Source: Candidatus Kaiserbacteria bacterium
GTDB taxonomy: Bacteria > Patescibacteriota > Minisyncoccia > Phycocordibacterales > UBA2100
Reading direction: 5' to 3'
DNA: 60,294 nucleotides
NCBI GenBank assembly: GCA_016217965.1
Contig: JACRFI010000002.1
Location: 1-60,294, forward strand
Shown here: positions 2,262 through 26,009 of the stretch, in pieces
Position numbering within the stretch: the first letter of the stretch is position 1
Layout of the letters: each line of letters begins with the position of its first letter
Notes under the pieces: model-generated
The model's input: the letters and a program-made list of their open reading frames with translations, nothing else
Told to the model about the DNA's origin: nothing
Database searches by the model: none
Made by a program: the position numbers and the translations under genes

Positions 2262-2957
2262 TTATTCGTGCAGCAGGTCTTTAATTGGTTCAATATTTAC
2301 ATCCTCAAGGTAACGAGCGATATCCTTCTTGTAGTTTCTATGTTCATCTCCGAAAAGATCAGTTGAGATTATCGAAGGGAAATTCGATCTGCCAGAATAG
2401 TCTTGAAAGCTGCTCCATCGATAATTTTCGAGATGTTTCAAAGCAGCAGGCGGATTTTTAACCGTCAAATCGCGCCATTGATCCGCGCCTTTCAAGAAAT
2501 CGAGCGGATTCAAATGAATGTAGTTCATAATGTGCATAAAGTGTGCGTCAGTGGCAATTCGTACTTTTTTCGTTCGTCCTTGAAACAACGTTCCCGCTCG
2601 TTTGTATCGTTCGTTGAAATATTTTGCATAACCGACATTGAGTTTCATCAAAAACTTTGTGATTCCGTTGTCGACTCTGGACGAGAGCAGTAAATGGTAA
2701 TGATTGCCCATAAGACACCAGGCATGTATATCCACGATTTGTTTTCTCTTGTCAGGCTTATATCCATCTTTATATCGACCTCGTAGGTCGATAGATTCCA
2801 CAGATTTGGTTGTACGCGAGTAAAAGTATTCGGTGTTCTCGGCTGGTTTTGAGTCGTTGAAGATAAATAGATCGTGGACAAAACGGTGCCGATCTTGATC
2901 ATCGAGAAATATTGTTCGCTTATCAACACCGCGATTAAGAACATGGTAAAGCTCCAT
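2262..2957 (-). CDS. REP-associated tyrosine transposase (RAYT; IS200/IS605-like Y1 HUH transposase)
   Basis: 231 aa. YHVLNRG...IF N-terminus, HUH motif in CLMGNHYHLLL, and catalytic-Tyr region NYIHLNP. Flanked by inverted copies of one palindrome. Confidence 0.8.
   Translation of the reverse strand: MELYHVLNRGVDKRTIFLDDQDRHRFVHDLFIFNDSKPAENTEYFYSRTTKSVESIDLRGRYKDGYKPDKRKQIVDIHAWCLMGNHYHLLLSSRVDNGITKFLMKLNVGYAKYFNERYKRAGTLFQGRTKKVRIATDAHFMHIMNYIHLNPLDFLKGADQWRDLTVKNPPAALKHLENYRWSSFQDYSGRSNFPSIISTDLFGDEHRNYKKDIARYLEDVNIEPIKDLLHE
2773..2793. repeat. REP-like palindrome (copy 2) lying inside the RAYT coding sequence
   Basis: tatcgacc-tcgta-ggtcgata, same core and loop orientation as copy 1. 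Encodes ...SIDLRGRY... of the RAYT. Confidence 0.65.
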
Positions 2958-2975: not shown

Positions 2976-3000
2976 CATATCGACCTACGAGGTCGATATG
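2976..3000. repeat. REP-like palindrome (copy 3), inverted relative to copies 1 and 2
   Basis: catatcgacc-tacga-ggtcgatatg. The loop tacga is the reverse complement of tcgta. Sits 19 nt upstream of the RAYT start codon. Confidence 0.75.
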
Positions 3001-3060
3001 TTATCCACTGAATACTTTGCAAGAGGAGGGACGAGCGACTTCCTCTTGTAGAATTGGGGC

Positions 3061-24533: not shown

Positions 24534-24542
24534 AAATTGCTT

Positions 24543-24676
24543 GGATTGCGAATCTCTTTCTCGGCATAAATTTTTTGCCGTCGCTATCTGGCGCTGCTGC
24601 GCCAGCGCTCGGTCTCGGCCTCGTCAGGCCTGCGAAGACGGCAAAAAACTTACGCCTTCGACGAGTTTCGCAATCC
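24543..24676. repeat. branched-hairpin intergenic repeat, copy A1
   Basis: Outer stem GGATTGCGAAtCTC/GAGtTTCGCAATCC. Long stem GGCATAAATTTTTTGCCGTC/GACGGCAAAAAACTTACGCC. Inner hairpins CTGGCGC-TGCT-GCGCCAG and GGCCT-CGTC-AGGCC. The near-homologous copy is at 47051-47176. Confidence 0.8.
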
Positions 24677-24695
24677 TTAGTAGAGTAGTGTTGTT

Positions 24696-24767
24696 GCCCT
24701 CGTAGTTCAATGGATAGAACGAACCGTTCCTAATGGTTTGATGTCAGTTCGATTCTGGCCGAGGGCA
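24696..24767 (+). tRNA. tRNA-Arg (CCT)
   Basis: GCCCTCG TA GTTC AATGGATA GAAC G AACCG TTCCTAA TGGTT TGAT GTCAG TTCGATT CTGGC CGAGGGC A. Confidence 0.9.
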
Positions 24768-24795
24768 TTGAACAGCAGTGAGATGTCCTCGACCA

Positions 24796-24927
24796 GGAAG
24801 GGGGTCGGGGAACGGGAGTTCCCCGTGGAGGAAGGCAGCGAAGCGTTGGAAAACCGTGGGCGACCAAGAAAATAACGAGTGCAATGAGTATATTTTCTGA
24901 AGTACTCTTGTGGTGTTTCCAAAGTGC
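24796..24927 (+). repeat. tRNA-trailer element, copy R1 (candidate structured RNA)
   Basis: The ~60-nt core GGGGTCGGGGAACgGGAGTTCCCCGTGGAGGAAGGCAGCGAAGCGTTGGAAAaCCGTGGG starts 28 nt after tRNA-Arg. The same core lies 39 nt after tRNA-Phe. The closing strand GTGTTTCCAAAGTGC is displaced by a ~55-nt insertion. Confidence 0.6.
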
Positions 24928-25040
24928 CGAAGAGCACAACAGTTTCTCCACGTTAGGTTTGTGGATAACGTCTGATAGGGCGTTTCGAAATGCGGGGTAC
25001 AATTATGGGAATCATTATTTACAACACTAATAAGATAACC

Positions 25041-25780: not shown

Positions 25781-25854
25781 GCCTGGATAGCTCAGGTAGT
25801 TAGAGCATTCCCCTGAAGAGGGAAGGGTGGTCAGTGCAAGTCTGACTCCAGGCA
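25781..25854 (+). tRNA. tRNA-Phe (GAA) with a non-canonical T-loop
   Basis: GCCTGGA TA GCTC AGGTAGTTA GAGC A TTCCC CTGAAGA GGGAA GGGTG GTCAG TGCAAGT CTGAC TCCAGGC A. The cloverleaf is good, but the T-loop reads TGCAAGT, with G where U55 is expected. Confidence 0.75.
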
Positions 25855-25893
25855 CAAAGAGCAATGCGATTTTGGGGCGGGAGTCAGACTTTG

Positions 25894-25968
25894 GGAAGGG
25901 GTCGGGGAACTGGAGTTCCCCGTGGAGGAAGGCAGCGAAGCGTTGGAAACCGTGGGTTTCCAAAGCGC
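25894..25968 (+). repeat. tRNA-trailer element, copy R2 (candidate structured RNA)
   Basis: Same core as R1, differing by one substitution and one 1-nt indel. Hairpins GGGGAAC-TGGA-GTTCCCC and TTGGAAAC-CGTGG-GTTTCCAA. Confidence 0.6.
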
Positions 25969-26009
25969 AACTCGCGTAGCGAGCGAGCAGGTTAGACTCC
26001 AGGCACAGG

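Follow-up and report, generated by a model that had tools for sequence, protein, structure and literature searches.

A probable small, gene-less insertion element with an antisense stretch and a covarying core, found at conserved gene ends of Patescibacteria

Introduction

The genomes of CPR/Patescibacteria are tiny and were thought to be poor in mobile DNA. The window analysed in this study, a stretch of 60,294 nt from a contig of a Candidatus Kaiserbacteria bacterium (JACRFI010000002.1, positions 1 to 60,294), contains two nearly identical non-coding sequences, one located behind tRNA-Arg(CCT) and the other behind tRNA-Phe(GAA). These sequences, hereafter R1 and R2, raise the question of what kind of element can stand behind two different tRNA genes with almost the same sequence. 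An earlier note on this DNA proposed either a small RNA cotranscribed with the tRNA, like the 3'-ETS-derived sRNAs of enterobacteria, or a recombination site. In this study, we compared R1 and R2 with copies from the same genome, from related genomes and from metagenomes, and we weigh these two options together with several others.

Results

R1 and R2 share a core with two covarying helices

The window contains two exact copies of a 38-nt segment of the core (24815-24852 and 25912-25949), although none would be expected by chance. As had been noticed before, the cores of R1 and R2 differ only by a single substitution, located in the loop of hairpin P1, and one 1-nt indel, and neither element contains a credible ORF. 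The conserved G-run begins 32 nt past tRNA-Arg in R1 and 42 nt past tRNA-Phe in R2, since the tRNAs end at 24768 and 25855 according to ARAGORN; the distances of 28 and 39 nt given earlier had been counted from slightly earlier starts.

The core is ~65 nt long and consists, in this order, of the G-run, the P1 hairpin, a purine-rich joiner, an optional P2, the P3 hairpin and sometimes a further hairpin, P4. In R1 and R2, P1 is the hairpin GGGGAAC/GTTCCCC, and P3 is the helix TTGGAAACC/GGTTTCCAA, with a 9-bp stem and a 3-nt GTG loop. P2, which is missing from the minimal 65-nt form, mostly has the apex C-GAA-G, and in R1 and R2 it is the mini-hairpin GCGAAGC, known as the extremely stable 'mini-hairpin DNA' motif (PMC13037366). 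P1 and P3 show strong compensatory change. Among 86 distinct copies, 95.7% of the P1 and P3 cells are paired, as compared to 30-72% in slid controls, and both-sided changes are found in 14 of the 17 P1/P3 pairs, a number reached by none of 500 shuffles. Thus, both helices of the earlier note are real and covary, although the loop of the second is 3 nt (GTG) rather than the 5 nt proposed.

Of 41 copies, 38 fold better as the sense strand than as the antisense strand. When R2 is folded from its antisense stretch to its second gene end (see below), a closing stem is formed together with P1, P3 and P4, with z = -2.9 as RNA and -3.6 as DNA. Many copies end with an AAGGAG-like sequence. An Rfam 15 scan with permissive E-values around 16 copies, a check that the earlier note had suggested, matched nothing beyond tRNA and tmRNA.

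An antisense stretch precedes the core and a second gene end follows it

Copies of the element share a common order. Downstream of the end of the target gene (copy A) come a spacer and an antisense stretch (AS), which is separated by 4-6 nt from the core; copy B follows, in some cases after P4. The AS, of 10-22 nt, is complementary to a site, termed X, close to a conserved gene's end, and B is a second, diverged copy of the target running from X to the gene end. Because the working end (A) lies upstream of the element, the gene stays intact. The element itself is gene-less and about 90-200 nt in size. The features of R1 in the window are as follows.

24695..24768, + strand: tRNA-Arg(CCT), the target of R1 (copy A); ARAGORN and Rfam
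24755-24764, + strand: site in tRNA-Arg complementary to the R1 AS, CTGGCCGAGG; read from sequence
24787..24796, + strand: R1 AS, CCTCGACCAG, with 9 of its 10 nt complementary to the T-stem/acceptor 3' strand of tRNA-Arg; read from sequence
24799..24860, + strand: 5' part of the R1 core, also taking in the G-run, the purine-rich joiner and the 5' strand and loop of P3; covariance-model match of 63.3 bits
24806-24813 with 24818-24825, + strand: R1 P1, within the 5' part of the core
24838-24844, + strand: R1 GCGAAGC mini-hairpin, within the 5' part of the core
24861..24915, + strand: nested 55-nt insertion, a different mini-element, in the 3' strand of R1 P3; missing from R2 and from 8 other copies of the same genome
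24916..24924, + strand: 3' strand of R1 P3 (TTTCCAA) and tail; from sequence
24927..24938, + strand: R1 B, a short decayed acceptor 3' end of tRNA-Arg, CCGAAGAGCACA as against CCGAGGGCA; read from sequence, weak

The R1 AS lies directly 5' of the core, and it falls below the shuffle threshold when R1 is taken alone. A search for a repeat of the tRNA-Arg 3' end with a 21-nt probe and up to 3 mismatches gave no match. R1 alone is therefore unconvincing, its own AS and its B both being weak. The features of R2 are the following.

25781..25855, + strand: tRNA-Phe(GAA), the target of R2 (copy A); ARAGORN and Rfam
25840-25849, + strand: site in tRNA-Phe complementary to the R2 AS, GTCTGACTCC; from sequence
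25879..25889, + strand: R2 AS, GGGAGTCAGAC; score of 13.5 against A and 6.0 against B
25896..25967, + strand: R2 core; covariance-model match of 89.4 bits, and folds
25903-25910 with 25915-25922, + strand: R2 P1, within the core
25935-25941, + strand: R2 GCGAAGC mini-hairpin, within the core
25943-25951 with 25955-25963, + strand: R2 P3, within the core
25971..25983, + strand: R2 P4, a small 3' hairpin, CTCGC-GTA-GCGAG; folds
25991..26007, + strand: R2 B, a second tRNA-Phe 3' end; score above all shuffles

Ten nucleotides of the R2 AS, GGAGTCAGAC, pair perfectly with the 3' strand of the T-stem and the start of the acceptor of tRNA-Phe, whereas the pairing with copy B has one mismatch and one wobble. 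The final 13 nt of R2 B are identical to tRNA-Phe, and its T-stem part differs by 2 nt. P4 corresponds in more distant copies to a variable hairpin that separates the core from B.

Two further observations concern the surroundings of these elements. The T-loop of tRNA-Phe (25781-25855) is unusual, TGCAAGT rather than of the TTCGAAT type, and it is kept in five related genomes (G020, G014, G015, G081 and G061). The sequence between tRNA-Gly and tRNA-Arg (24534-24667 of the window) is hairpin-rich and has 20-30x the surrounding depth in the source metagenome contigs, and thus looks like another repeat common to many organisms of the community.

The features of this layout were counted in a set of 147 copies, composed of 66 copies from genomes and 81 distinct metagenome copies among the matches listed. 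In this set, with its metagenome part so limited, the complementarity between AS and A is significant in 86 of 147 copies, and the direct repeat of A and B in 79 of 147. Such repeats, with the gene restored, are seen in R2, the rpmG copy and the copy on contig C11. A is a better pairing partner of the AS than B is in 132 of the 147 copies, again counting metagenome copies among the matches listed. The distance is also constrained: in 40 of 50 significant metagenome cases, among the matches listed, the 3' end of the AS lies 4-6 nt from the start of the core, and a further comparison gave the same register. At tRNA targets, the antisense of one stem half, the 3' one, is also similar to the sense sequence of the 5' half. 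The AS is, however, also significant at non-tRNA targets (rpmG, loci L029, L005 and L027, and others), and it is therefore not an artefact of tRNA self-complementarity or stem symmetry.

The duplications range from 13 to >60 nt and are diverged. The few bases of B beside X always differ from the target, as exemplified by rpmG (AA to TT, TA or TG) and R2 (CT to TA), and the AS matches A beside X, which holds in 5 of 5 genomes for a synonymous A/G site as well. At tRNA targets the junction lies at the border of T-loop and T-stem, and in tRNA-targeting copies of other classes B is preceded by a conserved T-loop look-alike ending with GTGAGAT. All clear B copies lie 60-210 nt past the core start in 74 metagenome copies, among the matches listed. 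A more distant copy B, which would indicate cargo, was found neither up to 8 kb downstream in the genome of the window nor up to 7 kb in the metagenome loci.

The element is widespread and occupies the ends of unrelated genes

The genome to which the window belongs (982 kb in 23 contigs, 94% complete) contains 10 copies of the core. Using a covariance model built from nine copies, we found the core in 41 of 61 relatives, with 1-13 copies each, and in 12 of 150 genomes sampled over the rest of Patescibacteria. Metagenomes gave at least 89 core matches on at least 80 contigs. In contrast to the proposal of a 3'-ETS sRNA cotranscribed with tRNA, only 78 of the 147 copies (the metagenome part being among the matches listed) follow a tRNA, counted as a same-strand tRNA end within 170 nt upstream and comprising at least 15 isotypes. 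The other targets include tmRNA, the 3' ends of rpmG and of rpsI (the latter in three different families), a gene for a proline-rich protein, and the murD 5' end, B at murD being a displaced N-terminus that has a start codon of its own. One copy in the genome of the window lies upstream of murD and antisense to it. Furthermore, a terminator hairpin with a T-run separates tRNA and element in many relatives.

In several loci (L025 at 1380-1581, L037 at 424-1341, L076 and L077), a single tRNA is followed by two or more consecutive cores, each of which has a tRNA-end copy of its own. These are accretion arrays, and tandem arrays are common. As for murD in relatives (L138-L160), many starts have a TATAGT-like -10 box just 6-9 nt upstream of the start codon, a sign that the transcripts may be leaderless.

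The core was not found by a pattern scan of IMG/VR or by BLAST against phage and plasmid collections, and it matched no known mobile-element end. Full-text searches of the literature revealed no description of the element, and a 2026 preprint on noncoding families contains nothing relevant to it. Of the finding that, according to the earlier note, would count against its reading, a scattered core with neither tRNA linkage nor conserved pairing, one half holds: the core is scattered, with only about half of its copies behind tRNAs, but its pairing is conserved.

Sites are patchily occupied and the core itself receives insertions

The tRNA-Phe site is empty in G020, whose tRNA is 99% identical, and occupied in several other species of the genus. 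The spacer between rpmG and tRNA-Trp is occupied in 7 of ~36 genomes of the genus, scattered over rpmG protein variants, and the copies at this site vary in having or lacking P2, in having or lacking nested inserts, and in spacer length. The same site has been occupied repeatedly in unrelated lineages. In the DNA contigs of four runs, we found no empty-site, excised or junction form, only raised depth on repeats. The recombination-site option of the earlier note is borne out in part: the core appears to be the conserved module of an insertion element that is flanked by two copies of the target end and whose sites are patchily occupied, but it is no known mobile-element end.

The 55 nt at 24861-24915 of R1 had been read as a variable loop. 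They are in fact a nested insertion, which interrupts P3 within its 3' strand. This mini-element of ~55 nt starts with CGACCAA, ends with AGTACTCTTGTGGTG and is inserted before TTTCC inside cores. It is present once in R1, once in G022 (L057, about 1750-1804), and 2-3 times in a single core of G020, including the P1 loop (L060, about 1700-1923). The cores concerned in G022 and G020 are rpmG-site copies, with the insert at the same spot as in R1. In the genome of the window, the insert is single-copy.

The spare gene end has evolved as a working gene

In the seven protein-gene cases, 39 of 47 differences between A and B fall at third codon positions (binomial p = 4e-7 against the 47% expected for a neutrally decaying duplicate), and 34 of the 40 changed codons are synonymous. 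This bias indicates that A and B both evolved as working genes, in different lineages, and therefore that one of the two gene-end copies came from another lineage. For rpmG, A is closer than B to the nearest relatives (7 vs 14, and 3 vs 10), which are themselves 10-20% diverged, and similarity is greater among the B copies than among the A copies. Judged by these sequences, the rpmG comparison leans towards A as the native end and B as the foreign one, and the N-termini of murD favour neither copy.

Candidate mobilising enzymes are not tightly linked to the element

Domains of reverse transcriptase (RVT_1), TnpB (PF07282) and IS110 (PF01548) were not found in the 94% complete genome of the window, and on this ground the IS110 bridge RNA and the TnpB omega RNA were rejected as identities of the core. 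The genome encodes ComEC and DprA, one tyrosine recombinase, four large serine recombinases (about 460-555 aa) and three RayT-like HUH Y1 proteins. The genes of the latter two groups are located as follows.

C16:2547-4211: large serine recombinase gene
C22:21818-23368: large serine recombinase gene
C11:144172-145833: large serine recombinase gene
C4:88471-89862: large serine recombinase gene
Window 2262-2957, - strand: RayT-like HUH Y1 gene, 231 aa, with palindromes at 2225-2264, 2772-2793 and 2976-3001
C4:4825-5421: RayT-like paralogue with its own palindromes
C2:89579-90151: RayT-like paralogue with its own palindromes

Three of the serine recombinase genes overlap the 3' ends of tRNA genes (Leu, Ala and Asp) convergently, which looks as if the attachment site lay inside the end of the recombinase gene itself. 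Repeats of tRNA ends were sought around the serine recombinase genes, and none was found. Among the 61 genomes, 26 contain both the motif and a serine recombinase, 15 only the motif, 8 only the recombinase, and 12 neither; the motif-only genomes include one that is 100% complete and has 5 copies.

The 231-aa RayT-like gene is flanked by the perfect palindromes ATCGACCT...AGGTCGAT and has one more inside the gene. Relatives contain up to 14 RayT-like genes per genome of ~0.8-1 Mb. Within the order, RayT-like HUH Y1 genes are found in 38 of 41 motif-positive and in 10 of 20 motif-negative genomes. Over the phylum, HUH Y1 is found in 6 of 12 motif-positive genomes as compared to a background of 47%, and there are complete genomes with 4 core copies and no Y1 domain. 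In the genome of the window, no RayT-like gene adjoins a core copy, and GC skew revealed no strand bias of the cores (6 vs 3). Thus, neither serine recombinases nor HUH transposases are tightly linked to the motif. No cognate HUH Y1 transposase was found, as co-occurrence does not extend over the phylum and the local genes have other palindromes.

Other identities were rejected on structural grounds. An integron attC site would require the core sites RYYYAAC...GTTRRRY, and the purine/pyrimidine pattern of P1 (GGGGAAC...GTTCCCC) does not fit them. A MITE is expected to have terminal inverted repeats of its own and short fixed duplications, whereas here the AS and the start of B are target-derived and the duplications are long and variable. 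A group I or group II intron, a self-cleaving ribozyme, an SRP-like RNA and a small ORF through B were also considered and dropped.

Discussion

Taken together, our results make it quite likely that R1 and R2 belong to a mobile element. In its full form, the reading that we favour, and hold to be probable, is that they are copies of a small gene-less insertion element, widespread in Patescibacteria, which would be mobilised in trans and bear a guide. The covarying core and the fixed register of the AS point to a specific partner and to base pairing as the means by which targets are chosen, and it is on these two grounds that a trans-mobilised, guide-bearing element acting as a single strand is favoured. 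In such a scheme, the element would be mobilised in trans as a folded single strand, the AS would be the guide that pairs with the target at X, and the core would be the handle for a putative protein; each lineage of the element would home to one gene end and carry its own copy of that end. For this combination of guide and scaffold as a mechanism, the chance seems to us close to even, if not somewhat below. The rpmG pattern, in which A is nearer to the relatives and the B copies are alike, fits insertion exactly at X poorly.

The main rival to a guide-bearing element is a spread that needs no dedicated enzyme, namely DNA uptake followed by ordinary homologous recombination or template switching between related cells. 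B would be a portable right arm and the gene itself the left arm, so that the A...B duplication would be recreated automatically, and the AS would fold onto A in the incoming single strand, leaving B free to pair. Such a route would suit the long duplication of variable length, ending at the end of a gene or terminator, that is seen without any mobility gene, as well as the preference of the AS for A over B, the presence of ComEC and DprA, and the existence of elements in genomes with neither of the candidate transposase and recombinase families. A comparable phenomenon, the insertion with long target duplication (ILTD) of restriction-modification cassettes, has been described in the absence of other mobile elements, for the most part in species with natural competence (Furuta et al. 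2010, PMC2853133). However, homology arms alone explain neither the conservation of a covarying 65-nt core over classes nor the fixed 4-6 nt register of the AS nor the retargeting to new genes, and arms of 13-50 nt are short for RecA. We consider this route unlikely.

The other alternatives appear weaker. If R1 and R2 were CIME- or MITE-like remnants of integrase-bearing elements, moved by a large serine recombinase or by a tyrosine integrase acting at the T-loop, the direct repeats of the target 3' end and the restored gene, which are hallmarks of such elements, would be readily understood, and so would the junction of tRNA targets at the border of T-loop and T-stem; three of the four local serine recombinase genes do overlap tRNA 3' ends. 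Yet no copy bearing cargo or a recombinase was seen among 74 metagenome copies (among the matches listed), no long repeats of tRNA ends lie near the recombinase genes, and co-occurrence with serine recombinases is weak. Moreover, one core serves many unrelated targets, unlike a site-specific attP, and the sequence next to the junction differs between the repeats where such recombinases need identity, which makes a remnant quite improbable. Scarcely any better placed is a structured RNA that serves the host, either an sRNA or a 3'-end module cotranscribed with the upstream tRNA or gene, to which the flanking repeats would be incidental. It is true that the element is always co-oriented with the end of its target, that the helices covary with G-U pairs favouring the sense strand, and that many copies end AAGGAG-like, but terminators often separate tRNA and element, the copy upstream of murD is antisense to that gene, orthologous sites are patchily occupied, tandem arrays and nested insertions occur, and Rfam has no matching family; we regard this possibility as very improbable. 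As for a non-autonomous relative of IS200/IS605 or REP elements, similar to PATEs and moved as single-stranded DNA by a RayT-like HUH Y1 protein, with the AS as an IS608-like guide, the probability is smaller still. A guide adjoining a hairpin, the better folding of one strand, the DNA mini-hairpin of great stability at the P2 apex (C-GAA-G or GCGAAGC; PMC13037366) and the enrichment of RayT-like genes within the order all speak for it. This enrichment does not extend over the phylum, however, complete 4-copy genomes lack Y1, and the three local RayT-like genes carry their own, different palindromes, do not adjoin a core copy and are accompanied by no lagging-strand bias.

Returning to the guide-bearing element that we favour, a bolder version can be conceived, which on present evidence is rather doubtful: a programmable mobile element without any protein gene, whose AS guide would direct insertion into any conserved gene end. 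It would use only machinery that is present in every host, such as recombination, replication or competence proteins or an unrecognised universal enzyme, and the spare gene end carried by the element would protect the host. If this were true, it would represent a novel mode of DNA mobility and could serve as a natural model for insertion directed by a guide.

Whichever way the element moves, a single non-coding family is found over the phylum at the ends of tRNA, tmRNA, ribosomal-protein and cell-wall genes, none of which it disables, and it may account for many oddities of 'duplicated gene ends' in Patescibacteria genomes. Since the spare gene ends appear to be foreign alleles, the element would also record gene flow between lineages. 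The design of a guide next to a scaffold suggests target choice by base pairing, and, if the machinery that moves it is found, the element could provide a compact, retargetable insertion system as a tool for organisms that are now becoming genetically tractable.

Comparison with known systems places the element between several of them. Like integrative elements and CIMEs, it is located at a conserved gene end, restores the gene, leaves the displaced end copy as a direct repeat, and forms tandem arrays at one site. Unlike them, it is only about 90-200 nt, has no gene and thus no recombinase inside, shares its ends with no autonomous partner that we found, and uses one core for many unrelated targets, each copy with an antisense to its own target. 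With ILTD it has in common the long and variable target duplication without a mobility gene; ILTD units, in contrast, are kilobase gene cassettes without a shared structured module, whereas the present element has a conserved non-coding fold, and its repeats differ as orthologues do. Enterobacterial 3'-ETS sRNAs are positioned just behind a tRNA, as are R1, R2 and about half of the copies, but the present element is multi-copy and patchy, is also found at protein-gene ends and behind terminators, and is flanked by target repeats.

In the hairpin of the CTX phage attP and in the integron attC, as in the present element, an antisense and a sense copy of the target are able to pair with each other, and the resulting duplex imitates the target, apart from mismatches at the junction. 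CTX attP and attC depend on a single fixed site (dif or attI) and on known recombinases (XerCD or IntI), and the RYYYAAC/GTTRRRY motifs of attC are not present here. IS200/IS605 elements, PATEs and REP/RAYT are small hairpin elements that are read as single strands, as is supposed for the present one, and IS608 has, 5' of its hairpin foot, a short guide which base-pairs with either the cleavage site or the target site. Compared with these, the guide of the present element is 10-22 nt instead of 4 nt, a spare gene end is carried, and a cognate Y1 gene was neither found nor indicated by phylum-wide co-occurrence. The IS110 bridge RNA and the omega RNAs of IscB and TnpB differ from the present element, which is known from DNA alone, has no protein gene and resides in a genome without an IS110 or TnpB domain; what they share with it is a variable target-complementary stretch at a fixed distance from a conserved fold.
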